A DNA stretch of 64,000 nucleotides from an uncultured Bacilli bacterium (GCA_910584305.1 CAJTZW010000003.1:10378-74377), one strand, 5' to 3'. Positions 38,866-64,000 are shown, counted from the stretch's first letter. Program-made: numbers and translations. Notes: generated from the letters alone by a model not told the origin.

Positions 38866-40365
38866 TCACTTTTGATATGTATACGCTTGTTCTTCTTGAG
38901 TAGATGCTATTGTATTATTTTGTACCGATGTAATTATTTCCTGAAGTTTGGCATTATACTGATTAAATTGTTGTGCCACTTTGTCTGTTTCTTCCTTTGC
39001 GCGTTTAGCAGCTACTTCAGCTTTTTGCCTCTCAACAGCTTCAGCATACAATTTCTTTTTCAAGTCTTCTATTTGTGCTTCTAACTCTGCTATCGAAGAA
39101 TCTTTTTCTCCCACTTCGGTAGTTAGTTCATCTATCGTAGTTTGTTGAGATTTTATCGTATCATCCTTTTCTGATACCTTTTTGGTATAAACATTTACTT
39201 GACAAGTCAATGAGCTTTTATCCAATTGAAGTTTCTGATTCTCATCCTTAAGTGCTTTATTTTCTGTTCTTACATCATTTAAAGTATTATTCGTAGCATT
39301 TAATTCTTCTTGCTTTTGAGACAAAGCTAATATAGCACTCTTTTGCATATCAGTCATGGCTATTTTAAATGCATTTGTCATTTGTTGCATAGCAATACCC
39401 ATATTCTGATTAAATGTATTTGTAATTGTGCTGAATTGATTATTCAAGTTTTCCACATCTTTAGTTTCATCATCAATAACAACTTTTTGGTCAGGGTGCA
39501 CATTTTCCGATGTTACATTACCATTCGAAGTTTGCATATTATCGGAAGAATTCTGCTTACCATCATTTACATTAAATTCAATTGTTGGATCTTGATCTTG
39601 ATTTTGCACTATATCTTCCCCTTCCTCTTGCTTCATAATTTCACGTACATTCTTACCTATCACATCTCGTATTGCTAAATTGTTATCTACTTCTGGCACC
39701 TTTGAATCAAGTGCTGCAATACTTAACTTTTTAGGGGCCTTGTTCACTTCTTTTTGTGATATACTTTGTGACTCCCCTAGATTGCTATTTGTAGTATTCA
39801 TATTTGATACCCATTCATCAAATTCAGAAGATATTTGTTCATCCCCAGCAGGAAATATTGGAGCGTCTATTTCTTCTTCAACATGTTTTTCTCCTGGTTG
39901 TCCTAATTCAAAAGGAACAGTATTTAAATCTTGTTGGTCATTAAAAGATACTGGCTCCACAGTTTCACTAGGTTCAGCAGATTTCTGACGTTCTTCTTCT
40001 TGTTGTACGCGCAATTCTGTAAGCTCTTGCAATTTTTCTTCTTTTTTCCTTTGTATATCTTCTAGTTTATTCTGATAAACAGCTTCAGCAAAGCCACCTT
40101 TACTTTGTTTTACTAATGTATTATTTTCTCTTTCAGTAAGTTTATTTACATCTTTTTCTAATTTACTAACTTCTTTGTCTAAATTTTCATTTTTGGTAAA
40201 CTTTGCTCTACATTTTCTAATAGCAGTCAAAAATTTATCTTTAAATTTGATTTTTTTAGCATCATAAGTATCTAATTCCATATCAGTTGAATGCAAATCC
40301 ATAGAACTTAAGATCTTAAACATATCCTTAACTGATTTATCTTTTAGTTGGTTTTCATCTTTCAT
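38866..40365 (-). CDS. hypothetical coiled-coil protein (499 aa, E/K/Q-rich)
   Basis: Long heptad-like charged segments and low complexity; no enzymatic motif seen. Confidence 0.4.
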   Translation of the reverse strand: MKDENQLKDKSVKDMFKILSSMDLHSTDMELDTYDAKKIKFKDKFLTAIRKCRAKFTKNENLDKEVSKLEKDVNKLTERENNTLVKQSKGGFAEAVYQNKLEDIQRKKEEKLQELTELRVQQEEERQKSAEPSETVEPVSFNDQQDLNTVPFELGQPGEKHVEEEIDAPIFPAGDEQISSEFDEWVSNMNTTNSNLGESQSISQKEVNKAPKKLSIAALDSKVPEVDNNLAIRDVIGKNVREIMKQEEGEDIVQNQDQDPTIEFNVNDGKQNSSDNMQTSNGNVTSENVHPDQKVVIDDETKDVENLNNQFSTITNTFNQNMGIAMQQMTNAFKIAMTDMQKSAILALSQKQEELNATNNTLNDVRTENKALKDENQKLQLDKSSLTCQVNVYTKKVSEKDDTIKSQQTTIDELTTEVGEKDSSIAELEAQIEDLKKKLYAEAVERQKAEVAAKRAKEETDKVAQQFNQYNAKLQEIITSVQNNTIASTQEEQAYTYQK

Positions 40366-50299: not shown

Positions 50300-51061
50300 T
50301 TAATCTTCAGATTGCGGTATTCCCATTTTAATTAGTTCAGAATTAATATTTTCTAAATTACTTAATATTACTAAATGAAGTAAGTCTGTGTAATCTCTCA
50401 TATTTCCTTCTTCTGCTAATTGTGGATTATTATCTCTCCATTCTTTAGCAGTTATACCGAATAATGCGACATTTAAAACTTCTGCTTCTTCTGCATATGC
50501 AAATTTCTTTTGTTTTTCTGTTAACGTAGGAACAATCATACTTTTTATAGCATCAGTATGAACTATATAACTAACTTTAGCTAAGATTCTATTAGCATGC
50601 CAATCTATTTTATTTTGATATGCTTCATTTTTCTTTAGTCTTTGAAACTCTTGAATTACATATAGCTTAAATTCCGGACTTAACCAACTTGCAAATTCTA
50701 ACGCAATATCACTTCTTACAAACGTTCCACCATTATTACCAGACTTTGAAATCATTCCAATTGCATTTGTTTCCTTAATCCACTTTTGCGGAGAAATTTT
50801 AAATTTATTACTACCAGCTTCGTTTTTAAACGTGTCGAATTCGACACCTTTGAAATTTTCATTATGAATGCTTTCCCATAATCCTAAGTATGAAATCACA
50901 TCTTTATTTCTCATCCAATTTTGTATAGGATATCTTGGATCATAGCTATCGGCATATCTTGCCAAATCTGTTAAAGAAATATATTCCTTATTATCTATTC
51001 TTATTGCATTAATAATTTGTTCTTTTACTACCATTTGGATTTTTACATTATCTTTATCCAT
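50300..51061 (-). CDS. KilA-N domain protein (phage antirepressor-like)
   Basis: ..ISLTDLARYAD...NWMRNKDVISYLGLWESIHNENFKGVEFDTFKNEAGSNKFKISPQKWIKETNAIGMISKSG..GTFVRSDIALEFASWLSPEFKLYVIQEFQRL.. is the KilA-N/APSES-like domain of Firmicutes/Bacteroidetes prophage proteins. Confidence 0.55.
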   Translation of the reverse strand: MDKDNVKIQMVVKEQIINAIRIDNKEYISLTDLARYADSYDPRYPIQNWMRNKDVISYLGLWESIHNENFKGVEFDTFKNEAGSNKFKISPQKWIKETNAIGMISKSGNNGGTFVRSDIALEFASWLSPEFKLYVIQEFQRLKKNEAYQNKIDWHANRILAKVSYIVHTDAIKSMIVPTLTEKQKKFAYAEEAEVLNVALFGITAKEWRDNNPQLAEEGNMRDYTDLLHLVILSNLENINSELIKMGIPQSED

Positions 51062-51255: not shown

Positions 51256-54200
51256 TTAAAATAATGTTAATTGACTAGATTCATCCATTCCATCTAAAAT
51301 TCCCATCATACGCATTTTATCAATAAGTGTTTGTGATATTTTAGCTCTTTTTTGTAAATCTTCAATACTGATAAATTCGCCTTTTTCACGTTCTGCAACT
51401 ATATTTTGCGCAACAGCCTCTCCTAGACCATCAATCGCATTAAAGGGAGGCAATACTTCTGTATCACTAACAGCTTTCCATACCATCGCCTCACTTTGAT
51501 ACAAATCAATATTTAAAAACTTCATATTTCTTGCCGTCGCTTCCAAAGCAATCTTTAAACTTTCAAGCTGACCATTTTCTTTGTTCGTAGCTTCATATCC
51601 TTTATTTTGAATTTCAATAATTCTCGTTTTTATCGCATCATATCCATGAATCATTGCTTCAACGTCTACATCTGTTGCTTTTGATGAGTACCAAGAAGCG
51701 TAGAAATAAACTGGCATATGCACTTTATACCATGCAATACGGAAGGCACTGATGACATAAGCAGCCGCGTGTGCCTTAGGGAACATGTACTTAATCTTTT
51801 GACAAGAGCCAATAAACCAATCTGGAATATTGGCGTCTTCCATTATTTTCTTATGTTCTTTCCAGGTTTCAGGATCTTTACTGGCCTTTCCTTTACGAAC
51901 AAACTCCATAATTTTAAATGCCTTAATTGGTTTAACACCCTTATACATTAGATACACCATAATATCATCACGACAGCCAATCGTCTCCTTAAACGGAACA
52001 ACATTATTTTGAATCAGCTCTTGTGCATTCCCAAGCCAAACATCAGTACCATGTGAAAGACCTGAGATTTTGACAAGCTCTGCGAATGTTGTAGGTTTTG
52101 TATCTTCAACAAGTTTAATCGTAAAAGGGGTACCAAATTCTGGAATACCAAGCGTTCCTGTGTTACACATAATTTGTTCTTTGGTAACACCTAACGCATC
52201 GGTAGAAGTAAATATACTCATCGTATCTTTGTCATCCATTGGCACTTTCATAATATCCGTACCAGATTGTAATTGGATTAGACGGAGTTGTGTTGGATCA
52301 GAATGGCCTAGAATATCTAGTTTTAAAACACATTCTTCAATAGAGTGATAATCAAAGTGTGTTGTTCTCCATGCAGAAGTTGGGTCCTCTGCTGGAAATT
52401 GAAATGGTGTAAAATCAAAGCAATCCATATAATCAGGAATAACGACAATTCCCCCAGGGTGCTGTCCTGTCGTTCTTTTAACGCCTGTACATCCTTGTGC
52501 TAAACGCTCCACTTCAGCAGTTCGCATCACAATATTTTTTTCTTCACAATACCCTTTAACAAATCCAAAGGCTGTCTTATCAGCCACAGTACCAATGGTC
52601 CCCGCTCTATATACATTATCCGCACCAAACAGTACCTTCGTATACGCATGCGTACTTGCTTGATTCAAATCAGAGAAATTAAGATCAATATCTGGAACCT
52701 TATCAGCATTAAATCCAAGAAAAGTCGCAAACGGCATATCCTGACCATCTTTTAATAAAGGAATATTGCAGTGTGGACACATTTTATCCGGCAAATCAAA
52801 CCCAGAAGAATAGGTAGCTCCTAGTGAAGTTCCATTCTCATCTTCAAAGATACTCATTTTACACTTACTACAACGATAATGTGCAGATAACGGGTTAACC
52901 TCTGTAATTCCCATCATTGTTGCCACAAAACTTGAACCTACAGAACCACGAGATCCAACGAGGAAACCCTCATCATTGGAGTGTTTTACAAGCCTTTGTG
53001 CAATCAGATAAATAGGATCAAAACCCGCTCCGATGACACCACCAAGTGATTTCTTTAATTTCTTATCTAACTCCTCTTCACTTAAAGTCTCTTCTGATGT
53101 TTCTTTTAAATACTCACGTACAAGTGATTTTACGGCATCACTACCCTCTAAAATAACTTCATGAAGTCTCTTAAATGCTTCCTTTTGAAGAGTCTCTCCA
53201 TTTAAATCAGTAAGCTTACTCTTAATAGAATTTAATACAATATCTCCATATAATTCAGTTGCAATTCTCTCTTCAATTGAATATGGTAGAGGTTCTCCAT
53301 ACCAATCCTTTGCCTTATCATATACAAGGTCTGTAACCACCCTTGGGCAATCTAGATAACTTCCTCCATCATCGCTTTTTACCCTTGGGGAAAACGGTGT
53401 CCCACCAGTATCTGGAATTACCTCAATCTCATCTACCATATCAAGGACCTTATTGGTATTTGTAACTACAATCTCATATGCCAAATCAGTACCTAAAAAA
53501 GCAAAATCATTTAACATTTCCCTAGTCGTTCTAAAATGTTGTGATGGTATATTTTTAATATCCTTTTTCGCAAGAGGGTGTCTTCCGCCCCCAGGAACTT
53601 TTTGATTGACAATAATTTCCCTATAGATTTTATCTTCTCTAGTAAAGTGATGAACATCCCCCGTTGCAACAATAATCTTTCCTGCAGATATTGTTGCATC
53701 AACAATTTTTTTAAGATGACTTTCAAGTTCTCCCTTATCCTTAAAATCTCCAAGTTGTAATAAATGATCATATACCTCTGGTGGCTGTACCTCTACATAA
53801 TCATAAAAGTTAATAATATTGGTTAATTCTTCTCCCTCTTTACTCCTAGCTTCAGTAAAGACTTCAGACTCGTAACATCCACTACCAATAATAAGGCCTT
53901 CTCTAAGTTCCTCTAGTTTACTACGAAGAATTCTAGGAGTCTTATATAAATACACCGTATTAGCAAGAGAAATAATCGTAAATAAATTCTTAAGCCCTGT
54001 TTTATTAAGTGCAATAGCATTAAAGTGAAACGTACGACCAAACTTATAAATTTCATCCTTAGAAATAAGTTTATCCAAATCGCTGATTTTCTCATATTTT
54101 TGTGCTTCTAATTTCTTTAACATCTTGTGAAAAACAAGTGCTGTTCCTTCAGCATCATAGTCTGCCCTATGATGAGCATCCTCATCCCATGGTACATTAT

Positions 54201-56025
54201 AACGTTTTACCAATGCAGAAAGTCCATGTCTCGCATATCCTTGATCAAGTGTACGAGAAAGTTCAAGCGTATCAATCACAGTATTTTGAAAAGTTCCAAG
54301 ATTATATTTTTTCATTGCCATTTCAATAAACGAAATATCAAATTTGGCATTATGCGCAACCATTGGTGCATCCGAAGCCCATGATAAAAATCTTTTTGTA
54401 ACTTCTTCTTCATTATCTTTTCCTTGAACCATTTCATCTGTAATACAGGTAAGTTCTGTAATCTTATCTGGAATATGTCTCCCTGGATCAATCAATTCAT
54501 CAAAACGGTCAATAATATCCCCATTTTGGATTTTAACAGCACCAATCTCAATCATCTGATCAGCCCCACCTGCATTAAAACCAGTAGTTTCTGTATCAAA
54601 TACAACATAAGTACTATCCATAAGTGGTGCATCCGTAGGACGTACAACAATATTTACAGTATCATCTACAAGGGTAAGCTCTGTTCCATACAATCCCTTA
54701 AAAATAGGAGGATTTTTTTGCAATTCCCTCTGTTGATCTAGTTCACGTTGTAATTCTGTCTTAACACCATCATCATCTTCTTCCGCTATCTTACTTTCTA
54801 ACTCCTCTATTTTAGCCTGTATATCTTTACGAATCTTTTTATTATAAGACTTTATAATTCCAAACGAGATAGGAAATGCTTGACAGCCACTATGATCTGT
54901 AATTGCAACTCCCCTATATCCCATTTCAATTGTTTTTTCCACAAGTTCACAAGTATGTTTTCCCAAATCCAATTTGGTAACTCCATCCATACCACTCATC
55001 ATTGTATGGGCATGAAGTTCTACTCTTTTTATAGGAGCATCATCAATAATCTTTTGTTCAAAAGACTTTTCTAAAGTATTAATATCCCGAATCGTAAGAC
55101 TAATATCTTGATTATATTGGTCTTTATCTTTTACAGTAGCACGTATTTTATGCCATGTTTTCTTTTTTATCTTTTTAGCGATAATATTGAATTCATCATC
55201 ATCATGTACAAAAAGTGTCCCATAAATACTATCAGTAAAATCTGTTATTTTTAAAGAAATAATATGAAGGCCTGTTTTAGTTTCACGGAAATCTGGATCT
55301 GCAAATATATATCCCTCAATGGTAACAGTCCCTCCAGGGCTTACTACGGTATCAAGTCGAACAGGAGTATCATCAATTTCTCTACCAACAATAATCTTTT
55401 GATTTTCTGGATCACTAATTAAAGGTGACCGCTTATAATCCTTTGGAATAAAGCGCTTCTTGCCTTCATTCACTGAAGGAGTTTCCTCACTTACTTCTGG
55501 TATAATTACAGGAGCCTCTAGTTCCTTATGAATTTCTTCAATAGTTTCTAAATCCCTCTCTGCATCAATCATAGTTTCAATCTGATATGAAAAACCACAT
55601 GTGTGCAAATCCTTTTCAAGGGACAGCTGAATACTATCAAATTTCATTTTCTCTGCTAAATTATTTAATACAATATGAAGTTTTTCCTTTACATAAATAG
55701 GCTTATCCAAAAACATTTGTAATAAAGGAGAATTTTTACTATATAAATCAATAAAATAACGATAATACTCCGCAATTAAATCCTGATTAATACACTTTAC
55801 CTCTATAGAAATATTCACAGAAAAATTAGAATATGTAGACGTAAGCAATTCTAAAAAATGCGTATATAAAGAAACTGGTAAATTAGTTGGCAACTCTATG
55901 AAAAATACATAAGTATCCTTTGCTCGATTCCCAACTATTTTAGAAAGAACACCCTTTTCAAAATAAGAATAAAATTGTTCCTCTATACCAATTTGACGTA
56001 ATAATAATTCTAATTTCTCATTCAT
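51256..56025 (-). CDS. polC: DNA polymerase III PolC-type (about 1589 aa)
   Basis: OB domain, split PHP, DEDD exonuclease (..VVFDTETTG..; ..HRADYDAEGT..), Zn-finger CX2C..CX2C, polymerase core GSRGSVGSSFVA.., tandem HhH. Start set at MNEKLEL (GGTGGAAG SD). Confidence 0.9.
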   Translation of the reverse strand: MNEKLELLLRQIGIEEQFYSYFEKGVLSKIVGNRAKDTYVFFIELPTNLPVSLYTHFLELLTSTYSNFSVNISIEVKCINQDLIAEYYRYFIDLYSKNSPLLQMFLDKPIYVKEKLHIVLNNLAEKMKFDSIQLSLEKDLHTCGFSYQIETMIDAERDLETIEEIHKELEAPVIIPEVSEETPSVNEGKKRFIPKDYKRSPLISDPENQKIIVGREIDDTPVRLDTVVSPGGTVTIEGYIFADPDFRETKTGLHIISLKITDFTDSIYGTLFVHDDDEFNIIAKKIKKKTWHKIRATVKDKDQYNQDISLTIRDINTLEKSFEQKIIDDAPIKRVELHAHTMMSGMDGVTKLDLGKHTCELVEKTIEMGYRGVAITDHSGCQAFPISFGIIKSYNKKIRKDIQAKIEELESKIAEEDDDGVKTELQRELDQQRELQKNPPIFKGLYGTELTLVDDTVNIVVRPTDAPLMDSTYVVFDTETTGFNAGGADQMIEIGAVKIQNGDIIDRFDELIDPGRHIPDKITELTCITDEMVQGKDNEEEVTKRFLSWASDAPMVAHNAKFDISFIEMAMKKYNLGTFQNTVIDTLELSRTLDQGYARHGLSALVKRYNVPWDEDAHHRADYDAEGTALVFHKMLKKLEAQKYEKISDLDKLISKDEIYKFGRTFHFNAIALNKTGLKNLFTIISLANTVYLYKTPRILRSKLEELREGLIIGSGCYESEVFTEARSKEGEELTNIINFYDYVEVQPPEVYDHLLQLGDFKDKGELESHLKKIVDATISAGKIIVATGDVHHFTREDKIYREIIVNQKVPGGGRHPLAKKDIKNIPSQHFRTTREMLNDFAFLGTDLAYEIVVTNTNKVLDMVDEIEVIPDTGGTPFSPRVKSDDGGSYLDCPRVVTDLVYDKAKDWYGEPLPYSIEERIATELYGDIVLNSIKSKLTDLNGETLQKEAFKRLHEVILEGSDAVKSLVREYLKETSEETLSEEELDKKLKKSLGGVIGAGFDPIYLIAQRLVKHSNDEGFLVGSRGSVGSSFVATMMGITEVNPLSAHYRCSKCKMSIFEDENGTSLGATYSSGFDLPDKMCPHCNIPLLKDGQDMPFATFLGFNADKVPDIDLNFSDLNQASTHAYTKVLFGADNVYRAGTIGTVADKTAFGFVKGYCEEKNIVMRTAEVERLAQGCTGVKRTTGQHPGGIVVIPDYMDCFDFTPFQFPAEDPTSAWRTTHFDYHSIEECVLKLDILGHSDPTQLRLIQLQSGTDIMKVPMDDKDTMSIFTSTDALGVTKEQIMCNTGTLGIPEFGTPFTIKLVEDTKPTTFAELVKISGLSHGTDVWLGNAQELIQNNVVPFKETIGCRDDIMVYLMYKGVKPIKAFKIMEFVRKGKASKDPETWKEHKKIMEDANIPDWFIGSCQKIKYMFPKAHAAAYVISAFRIAWYKVHMPVYFYASWYSSKATDVDVEAMIHGYDAIKTRIIEIQNKGYEATNKENGQLESLKIALEATARNMKFLNIDLYQSEAMVWKAVSDTEVLPPFNAIDGLGEAVAQNIVAEREKGEFISIEDLQKRAKISQTLIDKMRMMGILDGMDESSQLTLF

Positions 56026-56094
56026 AACTTCCACCAATATCATTATAGCAAAATTCATTTAAAGAATAAATAACTTTTACGAAAAAGACACCTA

Positions 56095-57624
56095 TCAAAG
56101 GGTGTCCAAATTAAATGCATCCGTAATTTCATAAATCCAATATGATTCTGAATTCAAACCTACAGGACTTGTATAAATGAGTTCAATCCAACCCTGGTCA
56201 AGTAATTCATCCATATATGAATCATATTCAAATAAAAAATATCTACTATATAAAATATAAACATTATCATGTCGTTTCACATAATATCGTATTCCATCTA
56301 CAAAATCATCATACGTTACATATTTTCTCCAATATTCATCCCAAGGAACAAATGTAAAATTATCATAACGTATATTACTCCAGAAAATATTACGATGAAT
56401 ATAACCCGTAACAGAAGTCGCAACATAATCCACTGGACAAATAAATGAAGCACTCTCTAAATTCTCTTCAATATATAAAGAAGTATCTAAAGCTCCCGAA
56501 ACAGGATTCTCTATATCATACTTCAAAGTTTTATAACCATAAGGAATTGATATAAAACAAAAAATAACCAAAATAACTTCCCATACATAAAATACCCTAA
56601 ATGATGTCTTTCCTTTTTCACAATAATCATGATATAAAATCCAAGCAGCAAACATTATGTAAAAAAGAATCATTAACGTTCTTGGTGGTAATGAAAACCA
56701 TATAAATGTATGTACACAGAACAAAAATAGATAAGAAACAAAAACAATCAAGGTATACTTAAATGAAAATATAAGTCCAACTAGTAAAATAAGGAAAAAT
56801 ACTCCTAATATAATATATAATTTAGAAAACTCCATAATATATACACCAATAAACGAATTCACCTCATTCATAAATCCATATAAAAGTGTATAAAGGAAAT
56901 TTTGAAATGAATTTTCAGAATAATACCCACTATCATCCATAATACCCGTTACAATTGAGTTATTCCACAAACTATGACTAATTTGTAAATAACATACCAA
57001 AACACCAGCCAGAATAATTAAAATAGGAACAATATACTTTTTCTTATTAAAATCATGCCTCTTACTACAAATAGTCTCTATAAAAAATAACAACGACATA
57101 ATACCAACGAAGATAGACATTATAATATGCGAGTTGACAAGTAAAGCCAAAATGAATGCATATAAACACGGTCTCTCTAGTCGTTTTGAATAAGTCAGAC
57201 ATAAAAGACTCAATAAAAATGGGATAATAGCATACACCCTACTATTCACACTGAAAAAATACAAAAACGGAGAAGAAAAAACAATGGCTATTTTAACAGG
57301 TAAGTGAAATGGAGATTTAAATAAGATAATAGCTGCAGTCGCCAACATAAATCCAAAACTAACAAATCCCATAGTAATTGGGGGAAAACCTAGTTTAGCA
57401 AATGGCATTAAGATTATGTGCCACAAACAAGGATGACCTTCCCACTGCATCTGCTTTATAATATCAATAAAAGACAAATCTCTAGCAATATTCCATGCCT
57501 GAAATTCATCACGCCAAAATTCATGATAAAAAATAGAATATATCATAATACTAGAATATAATAAAAGAATAATACCATAAATAATGTACTGATACTTCAA
57601 CTTCTTCTCATTCAACATCCACAT
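56095..57624 (-). CDS. polytopic membrane protein, putative GT-C-fold glycosyltransferase (paralog of 62356-63876)
   Basis: About 12 TM plus about 130 aa C-terminal extracytoplasmic domain. Conserved acidic motif in the first loop (..FWRDEFQAWNIARDL...EGHPCLWH..) is shared with the paralog (..FRDEVQAWDIARDL...EGHPCLWH..), suggesting a GT-C-like lipid-linked-sugar transferase. Inferred only. Confidence 0.4.
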   Translation of the reverse strand: MWMLNEKKLKYQYIIYGIILLLYSSIMIYSIFYHEFWRDEFQAWNIARDLSFIDIIKQMQWEGHPCLWHIILMPFAKLGFPPITMGFVSFGFMLATAAIILFKSPFHLPVKIAIVFSSPFLYFFSVNSRVYAIIPFLLSLLCLTYSKRLERPCLYAFILALLVNSHIIMSIFVGIMSLLFFIETICSKRHDFNKKKYIVPILIILAGVLVCYLQISHSLWNNSIVTGIMDDSGYYSENSFQNFLYTLLYGFMNEVNSFIGVYIMEFSKLYIILGVFFLILLVGLIFSFKYTLIVFVSYLFLFCVHTFIWFSLPPRTLMILFYIMFAAWILYHDYCEKGKTSFRVFYVWEVILVIFCFISIPYGYKTLKYDIENPVSGALDTSLYIEENLESASFICPVDYVATSVTGYIHRNIFWSNIRYDNFTFVPWDEYWRKYVTYDDFVDGIRYYVKRHDNVYILYSRYFLFEYDSYMDELLDQGWIELIYTSPVGLNSESYWIYEITDAFNLDTL

Positions 57625-57710
57625 TCACAATTCCTTCCATTATAATAATCTTAAAAAGGCAATACAATATAATTAACGACTTAACTATACCATATTGCCC
57701 TAACAAATTA

Positions 57711-58133
57711 CTATTTTATAACACTATACTCGATAGATGTTGCACCACTTAAATCAATATCTACTGAACTAGAGATAACCCTAGTTTCACCATTTGGTAT
57801 TACATCTCCTACAAATCCAGAAAGTGTATACATAATACTTCCATCCGCTGCTTTTACAGCAATTGAAAATTCAACCAAATCATAATCTGCACCTGTATTA
57901 TTTGTAACCTCAGTTACTAATGTTGAAACACCATTGGTAACAGTAAGAGCTGTATTTCTCATCTGTAATCCATCGAATTCTTGATCCTTAATAACGTCTT
58001 CTGCTGTATTAATCACTGTCCCTGTATTAACTTCTGGATTCGTTGAATTACCATCTTCGCCTTTTTTACTACATCCACAACCTGTTGCCAATAAAGTTAA
58101 TCCAACAAGCCCTATTGCTAAAACCCTTTTCAT
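57711..58133 (-). CDS. small lipoprotein
   Basis: Signal plus lipobox LLATGC; T/S/V-rich beta-type domain. Confidence 0.55.
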   Translation of the reverse strand: MKRVLAIGLVGLTLLATGCGCSKKGEDGNSTNPEVNTGTVINTAEDVIKDQEFDGLQMRNTALTVTNGVSTLVTEVTNNTGADYDLVEFSIAVKAADGSIMYTLSGFVGDVIPNGETRVISSSVDIDLSGATSIEYSVIK

Positions 58134-58849
58134 TTTATTTATTCCCTCCTACCTTACTAAATATATTCTACACTATATCATAAAATTTATCAAGATATTT
58201 TGACTTTTTCACATTTTTATTTAATAAAATGTACTGCAATTATTACTCTAATTAGAATCCCATTCATATATTTTCAAATTGAATATACCACATTACCTAC
58301 TATAGTAAAACTTTATATGATTCACCCAAATATTGTATATGGAGAGACAAATATTTTCATAATCCAAGCACCTCCAGCATCATAAACTTTTGTTACTATA
58401 TAGTACCCTTCTTAAACTCTGTAGAGTAACACAAGTAGGATATGAGCAAGTATAATTTATAGGAAAATAAAATATATTCCCACTTCCCATACTAATTTAA
58501 AACTCAATATCACCATTCCACCTCTAGAATAAGCAAAATTAGTAGTCTGAGATGGAGGCATCTTTTAATTCTATAGCCTTTGTAACAGTATTTAAACCCA
58601 GTTCAAAAGCTCCCCTTCTAACCTTCCCTATCTATATCGAGTACCATTGGTACTGCAATAAACGCTATAATTGCTAATATAATAATTCGTACGAGTAATT
58701 CTATCAGTGCAAATCTTTTTTCATATAAAATATATCTATTGTTCTAGATGTATTGTATCATAGACTCCCATAGAATATAACTTATACCAAAAATCATTAC
58801 ATTTTTTTATCATAGTATAAAGTTAATGTTAATAACTTTTGTTTACTAT

Positions 58850-59473
58850 TTATTCTAGGAATTCTTTTTTTATATAGCTAAATTTCTTTTCAATTTGATG
58901 ATATGATAATTTTGCAATTTCTTCCCCTCTAAATATTTTACTAATTGATTCTTTAGAAGAGTATAAAGCATTTGATGCAATATCTAATACCTGATTACCC
59001 TTTTCTAAATAAGCATGATAGTTCCCACCACAGAAGAAATTGGGCATATAAGATAAAATAACTTGATAATCCTTGTTTTCTTTAACAAAATCATAGGTTC
59101 TTTCATAACATTTCCCCATTAATTTCCTATCAAAAATATACCTAGAATTTATAGTTGAAAATTGCTCACTCGCTTTGTATACCTCAATTTCTCCCATAAT
59201 TGTTTTCAAAACATATTTTGAATCAATTATATGTATCTCATACACACCTGGCCATTTTAAAGGATTAATACAATTGGTATATTCATTCTTCGTTGCCAAT
59301 AAATAGTATATGGCATTATGAATCGACATAGAATAATTAAACTTATATAAATTTAACAGCTCATTAAATTCCATCTCATATTCTGTACCTTTTAAATAAA
59401 AGTAATTATATAATAAGGATTCACTAAATTGTTCTATAATAGGATATGGTAAATCTTTTTTTGATAATTTCAA
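58850..59473 (-). CDS. hypothetical protein (207 aa)
   Basis: ORF with no recognisable motif. Confidence 0.35.
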   Translation of the reverse strand: MKLSKKDLPYPIIEQFSESLLYNYFYLKGTEYEMEFNELLNLYKFNYSMSIHNAIYYLLATKNEYTNCINPLKWPGVYEIHIIDSKYVLKTIMGEIEVYKASEQFSTINSRYIFDRKLMGKCYERTYDFVKENKDYQVILSYMPNFFCGGNYHAYLEKGNQVLDIASNALYSSKESISKIFRGEEIAKLSYHQIEKKFSYIKKEFLE

Positions 59474-59790
59474 AAGAACCTTTTTAACAATTAGTTCATT
59501 TTTTAAATTTGGCTTTTTCTCACGTAATTGTACTTATCTATAAAAATCTTCATATTTCATAATTTTTCTCCTAAAATTAGTTTTTAGTTACAACAAGATA
59601 TAGGAATACTCCACGAAACAATAAAGGACTTATAAAATAAGGATTTCTATTACTTATAGGTACACCAATAACTACTTTTGTACTTGCCAAAACCACTATA
59701 TCAATCTACTTTTTAGTTATGGACCCCATTGTACCCCATTTATCAATGGGGAGGTGGGTATATGTCAATAAACAAATTATTTTTACAATT

Positions 59791-60632
59791 TTATAGTTCT
59801 TCTATCTCTTCTTTAGATAGTCCTGTCGCTTTCACTATATCCTCAATAGGTGTTCCTATATTTTTTAGATTTCTTGCTATGAATATAGTCTGTTGCTCAA
59901 TTCCTTGTTCTAGCCCTTGTTCTAATGCATATTCAAGTCTACTATTCATCTCTTTCCTTGCAACTGCTTCTGCATCATATAATCCTATAATATTCTTATC
60001 TTGACACAATCTCTTAATTTCATCTATTGCATCATTCATATAATTTTCTCCCCTCAATACTTCTAGTTCACATTCACTCTTGGCTGTGAATATTTTTAAT
60101 ATATTGATTAATTCTTCATTTGCATCATTAGTATAACATTTTCGCCTTACACTGTCTAGATTGATATTATATTTTTATAGTTTTCATCATCTATAAAATG
60201 ATCCACTGTTTCCATCATTTGAAACCTATAAATTAGCTTATTCCTTTTATATTGATCATAACAATCAAAATTTAATTGTATAATCATTCGATCATCATAT
60301 GTTTCTCCTGTTTCATAAGATTCTCCTGCTACCTTTTTTAGATACTGAGCATTCTTCTTTGGTAACCCAGGATAATATGCCTGGTTCATTTCAATCGATA
60401 ATAGATGTTTATCGATTTTTACTATCACATCTGTTTTATAGACTTTACTTTCTTTATGGGGTACTGGAAGTTCTATACTTTGATAGTCCGCATTCTTTAA
60501 TAATTCTTCATCAAGCCCTGTAATTAAGTGAATCATTCTTGCTTTGCATATATTTGTTTTTTCACTCATCATAAATGCTTTGAATACAGTATCTGATGTT
60601 AATTCTAGTATTTTTAGTTCTTTTATTTTCAT
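59791..60632 (-). pseudogene. Rpn-family (YhgA-like, PD-(D/E)XK) recombination-promoting nuclease/putative transposase, disrupted
   Basis: ORF 60156-60632 gives MKIKELKILELTSDTVFKAFM.., the N-terminal nuclease domain (GAGGTG SD). ORF 59791-60057 in a different frame gives ..EQGLEQGIEQQTIFIARNLKNIGTPIEDIVKATGLSKEEIEEL, the characteristic Rpn C-terminus. Stops and a frame change lie in between. Confidence 0.55.
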
Positions 60633-60679
60633 CCTACACCTCAATAGTAACATACGAGGTTTTATTACCATTTCCTTCT

Positions 60680-60715
60680 CATATAAAAAATACATCCACT
60701 ATTCTAGATGTATTT
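60680..60715 (-). terminator. rho-independent terminator downstream of the flavoenzyme gene
   Basis: aaatacatc-(10 nt)-gatgtattt with a T-run on the minus strand. Confidence 0.5.
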
Positions 60716-60768
60716 TGTTATATGTACCCTCTCATTGACAATAATTAGTGAGTAAGATATCCAAAAGA

Positions 60769-62343
60769 CTACTTCTTTTCTTCATGATATGACTTATCTG
60801 TATTAACACTCCAAATAGAACTTTTATCATTACTTCCATCTACAATCACACTTGCAACTTCCATACCAGTGAGCATTGAATGATCCATATTATTGTATTT
60901 ATGTTGGCCATTTCTACCAATACAATATAGATTTGAATAAGTGTTTAAATACTTTATAATATTAGGCATTTCACTATAAGTATCAAAGTATGCTGGATAA
61001 GCTTTTGGAACTTTAATACGAATGCTATGTTTTATTTGACTGAAGTCATTTAAAAGACCAATTTGAATCGCTTCTCCTACAGCAAAACGAACAAATTTCT
61101 CATCAGACATATTCCAATATTGATCATCTTCATCACAGAAATATTCAAAAGTAACAAGCTCTTCTTTCTCCATCTTTTTCTTATCTGGAAAAAGATATGG
61201 AGACCAATTGTTAAAAAATTGAACTCGTCCCATTTTAACTTCAGGTTCTTGCATATAAATCCAATGATCTGGGATTACATTCGCAAGTGTAGGAATTTTA
61301 GTTTGATTTCGCAAATTAATTTTATCAACAACAACCCCAACAGCCATAAAAGAACGATATGGTAAATGAACTGCTGCATTATATACCTTCTTTGGTATTT
61401 TTTCTCCATCAAGTCCTAAAAATAAATCTCGAACTGGCATAGAGGAAATAAAATAATCACACTTCATATTTTTGATTTTACTATTCATACAACAATCCAC
61501 TGCATATATCTGCTTATTTTTAGAATATACTTTTGTCACTTTATGATTTAGCAAAATCGTTCCACCCAAAGTTTCTACCTTTTCTGCTAAAACCTCCCAC
61601 ATTTGCCCTGCTCCTAATTTTGGATAATAAAATTGGTCAATGAGAGAAGTCTCTCCATTTTTTGTATCTTTCTTTCCGATTTTGCTTAAAAAAGCGTCCT
61701 TCAAAACAGCCTTAATCGAGACTCCTTTAACACGTTGACTACCCCAATCCGCTGATATATTATTAGGGCTTCTACCCCAAACTTTCTCTGTGTAATCTTT
61801 AAAAAACATACCATATAGTTTCTCACCAAATCGATTAATATAGAAATTCTCCAGTGAATCTTCCTTTCTCTTTACAATGCAAGATTTCAAATAACTAAAT
61901 CCAGAAACAAAAGTAATCTTTACTCCCATATTGACAATTGTATCTTTATTCAAAGTGACTGGATAATTAAAAAACTTTTTCATATAATAGATACGTGTTA
62001 AACGATTACGAATCAAAAATACATTTTCATCTTTTTCCGGATTGGGTCCACCTTTTACAAGAGGCTTCGAAATATGCAACTTCCTATCCTCATAAGAAGA
62101 CGCTCCCTGTACAGGAAGAAGTGACTGCCACAAATCATTTACACGATCATCCTTTGAAAAAAAGCGATGAATTCCTGTATCCAAACGATACCCATCAAAA
62201 GATACAGACTTTGAAATCCCACCTACTACATCATCTGCCTCCAAAATAGTAACATCATATTCATCACTCGCTTTTAACAATGTATAGGCAGCCGTCAGTC
62301 CTGCTGGACCTGCACCTACAATAACTACTTTTTTCTTTTTCAT
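60769..62343 (-). CDS. FAD-dependent oxidoreductase, UDP-galactopyranose-mutase-like / amine-oxidase superfamily
   Basis: N-terminal Rossmann VVIVGAGPAGLTAAYTL.., then ..GGISKSVSFDGYRLDTGIHRFF.. and ..FFKDYTEKVWG.. The Y(T)EK.WG element and the GxH.F element resemble UGM/Glf-type flavoenzymes. Confidence 0.55.
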   Translation of the reverse strand: MKKKKVVIVGAGPAGLTAAYTLLKASDEYDVTILEADDVVGGISKSVSFDGYRLDTGIHRFFSKDDRVNDLWQSLLPVQGASSYEDRKLHISKPLVKGGPNPEKDENVFLIRNRLTRIYYMKKFFNYPVTLNKDTIVNMGVKITFVSGFSYLKSCIVKRKEDSLENFYINRFGEKLYGMFFKDYTEKVWGRSPNNISADWGSQRVKGVSIKAVLKDAFLSKIGKKDTKNGETSLIDQFYYPKLGAGQMWEVLAEKVETLGGTILLNHKVTKVYSKNKQIYAVDCCMNSKIKNMKCDYFISSMPVRDLFLGLDGEKIPKKVYNAAVHLPYRSFMAVGVVVDKINLRNQTKIPTLANVIPDHWIYMQEPEVKMGRVQFFNNWSPYLFPDKKKMEKEELVTFEYFCDEDDQYWNMSDEKFVRFAVGEAIQIGLLNDFSQIKHSIRIKVPKAYPAYFDTYSEMPNIIKYLNTYSNLYCIGRNGQHKYNNMDHSMLTGMEVASVIVDGSNDKSSIWSVNTDKSYHEEKK

Positions 62344-62355
62344 ATAACATTCTCC

Positions 62356-63876
62356 TTACCACAATAATTTATATAATTTAAATTTAACAAATTCCTGATT
62401 AGAATTCCAGTAAAAGAACTCTGAAGCACTCTCATATACCAATTCTAATCTTCCAGATTCTTCAAGATTTTGTATTGTATCATCTGTTCCCCCACTAATA
62501 TTAGGGACATACAAAACATAAGCCGAGGAAGAGGTGTTAGCAACTGCAACATCAAAGTCACTTGAAAAAAGATCGGTATTCAAACTCTTATCCCAGGTTA
62601 CAAAAGAAAAGTACCTTTGGTTCTCTACACTATAAAACTTTCTATTTTTCAAATATCCCTGAATCACTCCAGTCATATTCTCATTTGTGGATAAAATTAT
62701 AGCATCACTTTCAATATGTTCCTCAATAAATGCAGCTATGAACGGAGCATCTGTCATTGTATGCTGAATGTCATTATAAGCCGCCTTTATCCCGTAAGGA
62801 ATCGAAAGCATACAAAATAAAAGCAATAATCCCTGTAAAGCATATTCACAGATAGAATATTTTTTTATAATAGAAAATATTCGCCCCTTACTTGGTGTTA
62901 TCTCCTCTTCCTTACAAATCCATGCAACAAACATTAATAAAAATATAATAATAATAGCCCTTGGGGTAATGCTATAAAAGAGCACCACACTCACAAATAA
63001 ATAAAAGGCATAAGAAATAACGAATAAAATTGTATCCTTTGGATGTATAAACATGTTCACACATAAAATAAGAAGAAGAAATCCTACAATAATGTAAAAA
63101 TATTCCCATGCAAAATTATACCCAGTAATATAATAAAATTCCATATTATAGCCACTCATAAAAAGATTACAAAATTCTAAAAAAGTAAAAGGCCCATAAT
63201 TACTAGTTCCAATACTTTGCACCAAAGAATTATCAGAATAACTACCTACCAGTTGTAAACATAAAACAATACCACCCAAAAACCCAATTAAACAGCCAAT
63301 TCCATGTTTCCAAGAAATTCTCCGATTCTTAATACAGTTTATAAAAGTCTCTAGTATAAAGAAAAATAACAAAATACTAGCCATACCAGCCATCATAACA
63401 TGTGTATTAAATAAGAGAAATAATAACACCCCATAAAGTAAAGGTCGTTCACTACGTTTTTGATACAATAAACAAATACATGTAATACAAAAAGCAATCA
63501 AACAATAATTCCTAGAGATTACAGAATAATAATAGATAAATGGTGAACTAAAAACAAGAACTGTTCTTACCAATTTAGAAAAAGGTGCTTTAAATAAAAT
63601 TAAAAAAGCTGTAACCATCATAATAAAGTAACTAATCCAAGAAACTACATAAATAGGGCATCCTAACTTTGCAAAAGGAAATAAAATGAAATGCCACAAA
63701 CAGGGATGTCCCTCAAAATGCATCTGTTTAAAAATATCAAAAGCGGATAAATCCCTAGCAATATCCCATGCTTGTACCTCATCACGGAATGGTTCATGAT
63801 ACATAAGAATGAATCCTGTAATTAAACAAAGAATAATAAATATGGTCCAATTATATATTTTATCTAACCTTTTCAA
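62356..63876 (-). CDS. polytopic membrane protein, putative GT-C-fold glycosyltransferase (paralog of 56095-57624)
   Basis: Same architecture and loop-1 motif as 56095-57624; roughly one third identity by eye. Confidence 0.4.
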   Translation of the reverse strand: MKRLDKIYNWTIFIILCLITGFILMYHEPFRDEVQAWDIARDLSAFDIFKQMHFEGHPCLWHFILFPFAKLGCPIYVVSWISYFIMMVTAFLILFKAPFSKLVRTVLVFSSPFIYYYSVISRNYCLIAFCITCICLLYQKRSERPLLYGVLLFLLFNTHVMMAGMASILLFFFILETFINCIKNRRISWKHGIGCLIGFLGGIVLCLQLVGSYSDNSLVQSIGTSNYGPFTFLEFCNLFMSGYNMEFYYITGYNFAWEYFYIIVGFLLLILCVNMFIHPKDTILFVISYAFYLFVSVVLFYSITPRAIIIIFLLMFVAWICKEEEITPSKGRIFSIIKKYSICEYALQGLLLLFCMLSIPYGIKAAYNDIQHTMTDAPFIAAFIEEHIESDAIILSTNENMTGVIQGYLKNRKFYSVENQRYFSFVTWDKSLNTDLFSSDFDVAVANTSSSAYVLYVPNISGGTDDTIQNLEESGRLELVYESASEFFYWNSNQEFVKFKLYKLLW

Positions 63877-64000
63877 AATCCCACTCCTCTGTTATAACCC
63901 TATTTATCCTACTCTCATTATAACATGAACCAATCAAAACGTAAAAGGTCATGGGTTTATTTCACCGAAAATGACATCATTTTAGTATACAAACAAGATA

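Follow-up and report, generated by a model that had tools for sequence, protein, structure and literature searches.

The region described here occupies positions 56095-63876 of a 64,000-nucleotide stretch of DNA from an uncultured Bacilli bacterium (GCA_910584305.1 CAJTZW010000003.1:10378-74377), and the whole stretch is referred to below as the window. Its minus strand carries four core genes, which encode two paralogous polytopic membrane proteins, a flavoenzyme resembling uridine diphosphate (UDP)-galactopyranose mutase (UGM, EC 5.4.99.9) and a small lipoprotein. We propose that these genes form one unit adding a furanose sugar to an extracytoplasmic polymer, a pathway which, taken as a whole, we regard as somewhat more probable than improbable. 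All of the open reading frames (ORFs) named in an initial annotation of this DNA were recovered at the same positions on the minus strand. That annotation placed the block after polC; on the coding strand it is in fact 5' (upstream) of this gene. The core genes and polC are as follows.

62356-63876, minus strand: GT-C-type membrane protein, paralog 1, 506 amino acids, TTG start (ORF present)
60769-62343, minus strand: UGM-like flavin adenine dinucleotide (FAD) enzyme, 524 amino acids, putative sugar pyranose/furanose mutase (NCBIfam PRK07208)
57711-58133, minus strand: small lipoprotein, 140 amino acids (signal peptide, lipobox LLATGC)
56095-57624, minus strand: GT-C-type membrane protein, paralog 2, 509 amino acids (37% identical to paralog 1)
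51256-56058, minus strand: polC (ORF present)

The paralogy of the 506- and 509-residue membrane proteins, noted in the initial annotation, was confirmed by an identity of 37% over 492 residues (E = 1e-85). Their first-loop motifs are HEPFRDEVQAWDIARDLS and HEFWRDEFQAWNIARDLS, respectively one for each protein, with HE..RDE.QAW.IARDLS common to both. The acidic motif reported earlier is thus real in both proteins, although its spelling, F.RDE, fits only the 509-residue copy. In an alignment of 29 family members, H27, D32, E33, P98, R122, Y124 and W319 were invariant, and paralog 2, which is one of these members, has all of the invariant columns. In paralog 1, a first transmembrane (TM) segment, TM1, is followed by the H27/D32/E33 loop and approximately 11 TM segments, and residues ~358-506 form an acidic alpha/beta C-terminal domain; D32/E33 are placed 6-7 residues past TM1. 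The positive-inside rule predicts a cytoplasmic N-terminus and places both the DE loop and the 150-residue C-terminal domain outside. In an AlphaFold2 (AF2) model of the GT-C protein (predicted local distance difference test score, pLDDT, 89), the N-terminal TM bundle superposed on solved enzymes of the GT-C glycosyltransferase superfamily (GT-C_A fold), AftB and AftA being included in the fold matches. Conserved acidic residues in the first extracytoplasmic loop, as expected of GT-C enzymes, were found as D32 and E33 in all 29 sequences. The model, the alignment and the predicted topology thus agree with the GT-C fold, the acidic first loop and the extracytoplasmic C-terminal domain that had been proposed, and we conclude with high confidence that the membrane proteins are GT-C glycosyltransferases.

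At the level of sequence families, neither membrane protein matched PMT_2, DUF2142 or YfhO, the models suggested in the initial annotation, nor DUF6056/GT_STM0557_N or GT87, and Pfam and NCBIfam scans of both paralogs returned nothing at E<=0.1. A Pfam scan of the 29 family members at E<=1 gave scattered single matches with no consistent one, a phmmer search of the GT-C protein against the PDB gave none, and alignment of the GT-C profile by hhalign yielded probabilities of 8.8% for DUF6056 and 7.2% for DUF2142, amounting to no sequence relationship. Since no profile relationship to these neighbouring families was detected, the membrane proteins represent a distinct GT-C family that is recognisable at the fold level only. 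A word-indexed search returned 35 relatives, none of them with a Pfam domain, and an exhaustive profile search returned 7,415 clusters (50% identity) at E<=1e-3 and 4,428 at E<=1e-30. A scan of one genome per species located at least 572 loci of the family, whose hosts are mainly gut Clostridia, Lachnospiraceae, Oscillospiraceae, Gastranaerophilales, Bacteroidota and uncultured Bacilli. The proteins are polytopic, of a size similar to that of Wzy-type polymerases and O-antigen ligases, and in some taxa lie in polysaccharide loci, as such enzymes would. Nevertheless, neither a Pfam Wzy_C or O-antigen-ligase match nor a fold of the WaaL/SEDS type was obtained, and the DE motif in the first loop is typical of ArnT/PMT-like enzymes, so that an assignment to either of these classes is scarcely tenable.

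Two further observations concern the GT-C genes themselves. Automatic gene calls in three sister loci (L092, L175 and L176) begin paralog 1 at M25, giving a protein of 482 amino acids that has lost TM1; the TTG start (506 amino acids) is preferred because homologs keep the N-terminal helix. Besides, the related genome GCA_965345015.1 carries at least four GT-C paralogs of 548, 483, 488 and 497 amino acids (L006 13782-16834 and L001 10001-11494), indicating a lineage-specific expansion of the family.

The best NCBIfam family for the flavoenzyme was NF005546/PRK07208 (687 bits), which is named just 'hypothetical protein' and to which more than 8,000 database proteins belong at E<=1e-20, and Pfam reported the generic Amino_oxidase and NAD_binding_8 domains. 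In a single-sequence search against the PDB, eukaryotic UGMs were the sole full-length relatives (1e-13), and a profile built from 27 sequences matched the UGMs of Trypanosoma cruzi (6e-20, positions 112-504) and Aspergillus fumigatus (2e-19) near full length. Protoporphyrinogen oxidases (PPOs), phytoene desaturases (CrtI) and amine oxidases aligned only with the N-terminal Rossmann motif (residues 2-73 by profile, 1-75 overall). Full-length matches to PPO or CrtI were not obtained, the PPO model TIGR00562 scoring 52 bits (cutoff 97.85) and crtI_fam, which aligned with just residues 6-57, 47 bits (cutoff 238). The AF2 model of the flavoenzyme (pLDDT 86.9) gave, in a Foldseek search, 34 top matches that were all eukaryotic UGMs, with TM-scores of 0.69-0.81 and E-values down to 2e-29. 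By sequence, profile and fold, the enzyme is therefore UGM-like rather than PPO- or CrtI-like, in agreement with the initial annotation, which had named alignment to the latter enzymes as the result that would overturn its view.

The active site was compared by mapping residues through HMMER alignments onto the ligands in Table 3 of PMC3624792 (the A. fumigatus UGM residue is given first and the window residue second). On the flavin side, H63=H59, R447=R477 and N457=N485 were kept. The diphosphate ligands were kept at five of five positions (R182=R204, Y317=Y363, R327=R373, Y419=Y449 and Y453=Y483), as were both uracil-stacking residues (Y104=Y127 and F158=F180) and W167=W189. These 11 positions were invariant in 27 homologs, and so were the motifs pointed out earlier as GxHRFF and YTEKVWG, which read GIHRFF and YTEKVWG in the window. 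The family differs from UGMs in an extra insertion at ~80-108 and an invariant C-terminal tail (W511, V513, N514 and Y519-H520-E521). From the sequence comparison and the modelled structure, the flavoenzyme is probably of the mutase type, with a putative activity.

The genomic neighbourhood of the GT-C family was examined in 88 loci gathered through the GT-C, 20 of which hold a member of the flavoenzyme cluster. The flavoenzyme was the immediate same-strand neighbour of the GT-C, with a gap of 0-60 bp, in 17 of these 20, and the paired loci came from Clostridia, Oscillospiraceae, Ruminococcus, Muribaculaceae and uncultured Bacilli. Searches with tblastn added loci of Flexilinea, Lentisphaeria and Gastranaerophilales, which stand outside the adjacency count. 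Tandem GT-C copies were seen in L006, L007, L020, L029, L056 and L071. A neighbour of 145-155 amino acids flanking the pair in six of these loci belonged to the GtrA family (PF04138, 1.5e-20), and a family 2 glycosyltransferase (GT2) was encoded in four of the 20. The converse sample consisted of 63 metagenome loci picked by the flavoenzyme alone, in which the counts are lower bounds since many contigs are truncated. In this sample, a protein of at least 400 amino acids with at least six TM segments was encoded within 2.5 kb of the flavoenzyme at 40 loci and directly adjacent to it at 29; an adjacent GtrA was found at 17 loci, a GT2 at 2 and a member of the window's GT-C family at 5. Three more spot checks beside the flavoenzyme revealed a DUF2142 GT-C, a 678-residue polytopic protein and a split polytopic protein. 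In general, then, the module combines GtrA and PRK07208 with a GT-C, which may belong to any of several families, and a GtrB-like GT2 is usually missing. The functional link between flavoenzyme and GT-C made in the initial annotation is supported by this adjacency, which is conserved across phyla. The pairing recurs in many gut bacteria, where it probably serves cell-surface decoration. A literature search found no paper on PRK07208 or on the flavoenzyme/GT-C pairing and nothing on DUF2142 with galactofuranose; for GtrA, an FAD oxidoreductase and a GT-C combined, only the pentofuranose commentary PMC11194591 was found.

The Lachnospiraceae relatives of the GT-C lie in large wall-polysaccharide clusters with GT2, DUF2304, PMT_2, DUF2142, GT87, DegT, an epimerase and Wzm/Wzt, and GtrA too accompanies members of the family in cell-wall polysaccharide clusters. 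These surroundings bear on a different role for the flavoenzyme, as a redox enzyme of the amine-oxidase/PPO/CrtI superfamily that would oxidise a hydroxyl group of a sugar carried on a nucleotide or a lipid, in the manner of DprE1, yielding an epimer, keto or amino sugar, so that the GT-Cs would transfer a modified pyranose. The adjoining DegT aminotransferases, epimerases and other flavoproteins recall an ArnT-like arrangement, the Pfam domains of the flavoenzyme are compatible with a redox enzyme, PPOs are respectable fold matches, and FAD oxidoreductases occur in published three-component systems of Bacillus (PMC11194591). The similarity to PPO and CrtI is, however, limited to the Rossmann motif and far under the cutoffs, and the 17 loci in which the ~520-residue flavoenzyme stands next to the GT-C have no DegT and mostly no epimerase (L029 has one). 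A redox role is made less likely by the presence of the UGM-specific set of R182, R327, Y419, Y453 and N457 with the histidine loop, all invariant, and we consider it quite improbable.

A 382-residue flavoprotein family with DAO/NAD_binding_8 domains was also observed beside the GT-C, at L074 (11496-12644) and at 14 other Lachnospiraceae loci, together with two GT2 genes and DegT. It has no relative in the PDB and constitutes a second uncharacterised flavoenzyme-GT-C arrangement.

Based on these results, a pathway is proposed as described below. In the cytoplasm, the flavoenzyme, with reduced FAD, would contract an activated sugar, most likely a UDP-hexose, from the pyranose to the furanose form by UGM-type chemistry. 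The furanose would then be carried on polyprenyl phosphate, a step needing a GT2-type synthase and a flippase that would be encoded elsewhere in the genome; in other lineages, the GtrA inside the module may act as the flippase. Outside the membrane, the two GT-C paralogs would take the furanose off its lipid carrier and attach it to acceptors, using the Asp-Glu pair that is invariant in the first external loop; having two paralogs would provide for two linkages or else for two acceptors. In this scheme we infer that the flavoenzyme has mutase activity, which sugar is involved, that the donor is lipid-linked, and that a cell-wall glycopolymer or a surface protein accepts the sugar. The initial annotation had envisaged that the enzymes make a furanose donor and transfer it. 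This one-step scheme is incomplete, for it needs in addition a lipid-sugar synthase and a flippase: to our knowledge, characterised GT-C enzymes take donors linked to polyprenyl phosphate and never nucleotide sugars. The closest fold matches of the present GT-C proteins use polyprenyl-monophosphate monosaccharides, and the GtrA and GT2 neighbours in relatives suggest a polyprenyl-phosphate-linked donor here as well.

Several observations weigh against this pathway. The flavoenzyme is only ~20% identical to UGMs, Pfam GLF (PF03275) was not among the 15 Pfam families listed for it, and TIGR00031, the Glf/UGM model proposed in the initial annotation as a check, was not found among the best 25 of 86 NCBIfam families. 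In the Foldseek search, the PPO match was only moderately worse than that of UGM (E-values of 1e-22 and 2e-29, respectively). Substrate-contact positions are replaced (Q107->T130, N163->T185 and N207->T232, the last in a gap-rich, poorly aligned flap of low pLDDT), as is Y334->W380. Because three substrate-contact positions differ, the substrate may not be UDP-galactose, and galactose, the sugar suggested earlier, is no more than a candidate. Furthermore, tblastn searches of the 64-kb window with GtrA and GT2 probes found nothing. GtrA and a GtrB-like GT2 encoded with the GT-C, the hallmark of Gtr-type systems, are thus not seen in the window; in relatives GtrA is common and GT2 rare beside the module (4 of 20 and 2 of 63 loci). 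It follows that no enzyme can be assigned to the furanose-loading step. A literature search likewise found no GT-C enzyme using a lipid-linked hexofuranose.

The gap at the loading step motivates the main alternative, in which the flavoenzyme acts at the lipid level: a housekeeping GT2 would make a polyprenyl-phosphate pyranose, the flavoenzyme would convert it to the furanose and so fill the slot of GtrB in classical Gtr systems, GtrA would flip it, and the GT-Cs would use it. The recurrent combination of GtrA, flavoenzyme and GT-C, nearly without GT2, is what this alternative predicts, whereas a UDP-furanose product would predict a dedicated lipid-sugar synthase in the module. The active site can also be read in this way, as the phosphate ligands are all kept while the uracil hydrogen-bonding Q107 and the 'other important' N163 are replaced, and the chemistry would require just a phosphate leaving group at C1. 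Remodelling on the lipid occurs in mycobacteria, in which decaprenyl-P-ribose is converted to decaprenyl-P-arabinose. On the other hand, the uracil-stacking Y104 and F158 and also W167 are invariant, which argues for a retained nucleotide pocket; the flavoenzyme has no membrane anchor; GT2 genes may sit elsewhere in the genomes; and the literature search found no precedent for a lipid-linked pyranose/furanose mutase. We consider a mutase acting at the lipid level unlikely, if less so than a redox role. Its extension to the family is less probable again: PRK07208 proteins would be polyprenyl-phosphate-sugar pyranose-to-furanose mutases, forming with GtrA and a GT-C a GT2-independent module that makes a lipid-linked hexofuranose donor. 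At the same low probability, gut anaerobes would commonly possess this module, and its product would supply several GT-C families, the one with ~7,400 clusters among them. No report of a lipid-linked hexofuranose donor (lipid-linked galactofuranose) was found in the literature search.

For the pathway that we favour, the genomic context would make a wall polymer the preferred acceptor, with pilin-type proteins a minority possibility. If the acceptor were a protein, the GT-Cs would attach the furanose by O-glycosylation to surface proteins, whether type IV pilin-like or not, as TfpW does. A decayed pilin-like gene lies inside the window's cassette. At L001 (985-9912; GCA_965345015.1), a 2,975-residue protein with the prepilin-type N-terminus KKGFTLIELLAVFVVLAILAVIAVP is encoded 89 bp 5' of the GT-C paralog P0008. 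The GtrA-flavoenzyme-GT-C module of L025 has three pilin genes and two for pilus ATPases directly beside it, pilins occur within 4 kb at L015 and L046, and pilus ATPase genes were found in 10 of the 88 loci. Set against this, such adjacency is confined to ~5 of the 88 loci, some of them related, the pilin gene of the window is dead and stands in an insert that relatives lack, and most members of the GT-C family are in polysaccharide clusters. A pilin-like acceptor is accordingly given a low probability.

The integrity of the cassette was assessed in relatives. At L007, the order is prfA, prmC, ftsW (opposite strand), GT-C, flavoenzyme, a 156-residue lipoprotein, GT-C, polC, a KilA-N-like gene and a radical S-adenosylmethionine gene, which is the gene order of the window except for a flavoenzyme-lipoprotein spacing of 36 bp; L006 shows the same start of the cassette. 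Compared with the L007 orthologs, PolC was 88.5% identical, the flavoenzyme 70%, and the GT-Cs 51% and 56%. The lipoproteins at the same position in L006 and L007 are 61-66% identical to that of the window. Each GT-C paralog of the window is closest to its positional counterpart (paralog 2: 56% in L007, against 34-36% to the other paralog). As the positional orthologs have been kept separate, the duplication is old and precedes the split of the lineages, and the cassette is vertically inherited but fast-evolving.

The lipoprotein, with a beta-rich C-terminal part, occupies the cassette position in the close clade only. It belongs to no Pfam or NCBIfam family and has no PDB match, and PHROGs and PADLOC gave nothing meaningful; its more distant homologs (47% identical in Candidatus Fimihabitans) are found beside camS and gatCAB and not in a cassette of this kind. 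The drop from 88.5% identity in PolC to 51-70% in the adjoining cassette proteins of L007 forms a steep local gradient of evolutionary rate.

These data bear on the suggestion that the whole 8-kb block is a horizontally acquired, partly decayed and functionless island. One pseudogene together with a decayed pilin-like gene and an orphan in mid-block, and the far faster divergence of the cassette proteins than of PolC, are in its favour. However, the four core ORFs were intact in every strain and relative examined, they are syntenic from ftsW to polC in relatives with an 88.5% identical PolC, and their GC content (0.29-0.35) brackets the window mean of 0.30. Because order and position are kept in relatives and the GC content brackets that mean, the core is not an acquired decaying island. 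With an old duplication and decay limited to a 2.6-kb insert, the suggestion holds for that insert only and, applied to the whole block, is very improbable.

The insert, 2.6 kb from the stop of the flavoenzyme gene to the start of the lipoprotein gene, is lineage-specific and contains an Rpn gene, an orphan and a decayed pilin-like gene, as follows.

60156-60695 and 59791-60057, minus strand: broken Rpn-family (PD-(D/E)XK) nuclease or putative transposase pseudogene (two ORFs)
58850-59473, minus strand: orphan ORF, 207 amino acids, within the insert
58300-58762, minus strand: decayed pilin-like gene (weak NCBIfam matches and three-frame translation)

These three elements are a later insertion that split the cassette and have no part in its function. 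The frameshift noted earlier in the Rpn nuclease gene was verified as a 1-nucleotide deletion in an A-run near 60177 by comparison with a 99.6% identical strain. The C-terminal 88 amino acids matched TIGR01784 at 3e-11; the repaired product of 279 amino acids, whose frame is broken in the window, scored 52.5 bits against a cutoff of 52.1 (aligned over 2-273 of 273). For the N-terminal fragment, Pfam and NCBIfam gave nothing, and a tblastn search of the N-terminal ORF against plasmids gave no match. Among strains at least 99.3% identical, the gene is intact (293 amino acids) in L092 (= L177), carries the 1-nucleotide deletion in the window and L175, and has a nonsense mutation (IEMN*) in L176. 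An assembly error is an unlikely cause of the frameshift, given this independent nonsense mutation in a second strain and a metagenome-assembled genome (MAG) contig at NCBI that is 100% identical to the window; the identity extends over 13 kb (GCA_948495805.1, contig CAOOFL010000003.1).

The orphan is 207 amino acids long in the window and 225 or 236 in sister strains; it had no Pfam, NCBIfam or PHROG match, gave only a marginal PADLOC match to KwaA (E=0.0066), and was not found in the relatives L006 and L007. The 716-bp stretch at 58134-58849, described in the initial annotation as AT-rich and non-coding, holds the decayed pilin-like gene, and its GC content of 27% is just slightly under the window mean of 30%. 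In this remnant, an ATG near 58722 precedes a poly-A run with a frameshift; the prepilin-type N-terminal helix, RFALIELLVRIIILAIIAFIAVP, comes next, and stops and frameshifts interrupt the frame after it. Its NCBIfam matches were weak but mutually consistent (GspG pseudopilin, 1.7e-4; ComGC, 0.008; PilA, 0.011). A 40-nucleotide direct repeat, with copies at 58723-58762 and 60683-60722 that are 80% identical and 1,960 bp apart, sits just 5' of both the pilin-remnant ATG and the point where the Rpn ORF starts; it may have arisen by duplication of a 5' region or be a trace of the assembly of the insert.

Consensus scans of the region provided candidate regulatory sites, of which three are listed here.

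56086-56107, minus strand: terminator-like hairpin at the end of paralog 2, ahead of the polC start at 56058 (consensus scan only)
63917-63945, minus strand: promoter-like site 5' of paralog 1, with TTTACG, a 17-nucleotide spacer, TG and TATAAT (consensus scan)
58165-58193: second promoter-like candidate, 5' of the lipoprotein gene (consensus scan)

Terminator-like sites numbered 4 against 1.9 expected, which is weak evidence, and promoter-like sites 56 against 54.5 expected, a number not above chance in AT-rich DNA, so that they are candidates only. An Rfam scan of 55900-64000 gave merely two sub-threshold chance matches, with no family in the 58134-58849 stretch. As for the neighbouring genes, PolC is long (1,595-1,600 amino acids according to the start codon chosen). 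Directly 3' of polC, a KilA-N protein (50300-51061, minus strand) matched the PADLOC candidate defence family PDC-S22 (2.5e-107) and PHROG 2657, a transcriptional regulator (4e-43), and a KilA-N/ORF6N-type gene occupies the same spot after polC in L007. A 499-residue protein at 38866-40365 (minus strand) was considered as a third paralog and rejected, being soluble and acidic with much coiled-coil and low-complexity sequence, no similarity to the GT-C family and no Pfam match.

Furanose sugars are absent from mammals and strongly antigenic, and the enzymes of their biosynthesis are drug targets. If the proposed pathway is correct, it would give a function to a common 'hypothetical' flavoenzyme family of more than 8,000 database proteins and to a GT-C family of ~7,400 clusters at 50% identity that has no Pfam or NCBIfam model. 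It would also reveal a route by which gut Bacillota, Melainabacteria and Bacteroidota have hexofuranoses attached to their surface from outside the membrane, and would raise the question of how, with no dedicated GT2, the lipid-linked donor arises. Annotators could then take the joint occurrence of GtrA, PRK07208 and a polytopic protein as the marker of a glycosylation module.

Three-component extracytoplasmic glycosylation is known from GtrA/GtrB/GtrC of Shigella and Salmonella phages and, in Gram-positives, from CsbB/GtcA/YfhO, GacI-L and Csd (PMC8035078). As in these systems, a transferase of the GT-C fold whose first external loop is acidic would act outside, GtrA is part of the module in many relatives, and the GT-C family of the window has members in cell-wall polysaccharide clusters. 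In contrast to them, the module contains a UGM-like flavoenzyme instead of a GtrB GT2, the window also lacks GtrA, and the GT-C belongs to no described sequence family. The pentofuranose systems (Kelly et al. 2024, PMC11127046; PMC11194591) start from phosphoribosyl pyrophosphate (PRPP) and use a UbiA-like synthase and a DprE1-type oxidoreductase of the vanillyl-alcohol oxidase (VAO) fold. They are represented by the mycobacterial decaprenyl-P-arabinose pathway, with the GtrA protein Rv3789, DprE1/E2 and the Aft/Emb GT-Cs, and by TfpW, which adds D-arabinofuranose to Pseudomonas pilins (PMC11127046, PMC11194591). The likeness consists in an extracytoplasmic furanose that GT-Cs would transfer from polyprenyl-phosphate donors, and in a flavoenzyme and a small flippase next to several GT-C paralogs. 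The flavoenzyme here, unlike theirs, is UGM-fold and not DprE1-type, which implies contraction of a pyranose ring, and no PRPP-dependent synthase was seen in the window.

Among single enzymes, the eukaryotic-type UGMs (A. fumigatus 3UKA/3UTE and T. cruzi 4DSG) are closest in sequence and fold, sharing a length of ~500 amino acids, the histidine loop, the diphosphate ligands, the uracil stackers, N457 and R447. The window enzyme differs from them in being bacterial, in its ~20% identity, extra insertion and tail, and in its genetic coupling to GT-Cs rather than to cytoplasmic or Golgi galactofuranosyltransferases. The GT-Cs for their part show 8-15% identity and no profile similarity to ArnT (GT83), PMT (GT39) and the ALG/PIG mannosyltransferases, and have a small, different C-terminal domain. 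Compared with the known systems, what differs is the apparent lack of a local lipid-sugar synthase, a GT-C family for which no model exists, and a UGM-fold flavoenzyme standing in the place of DprE1 or GtrB.

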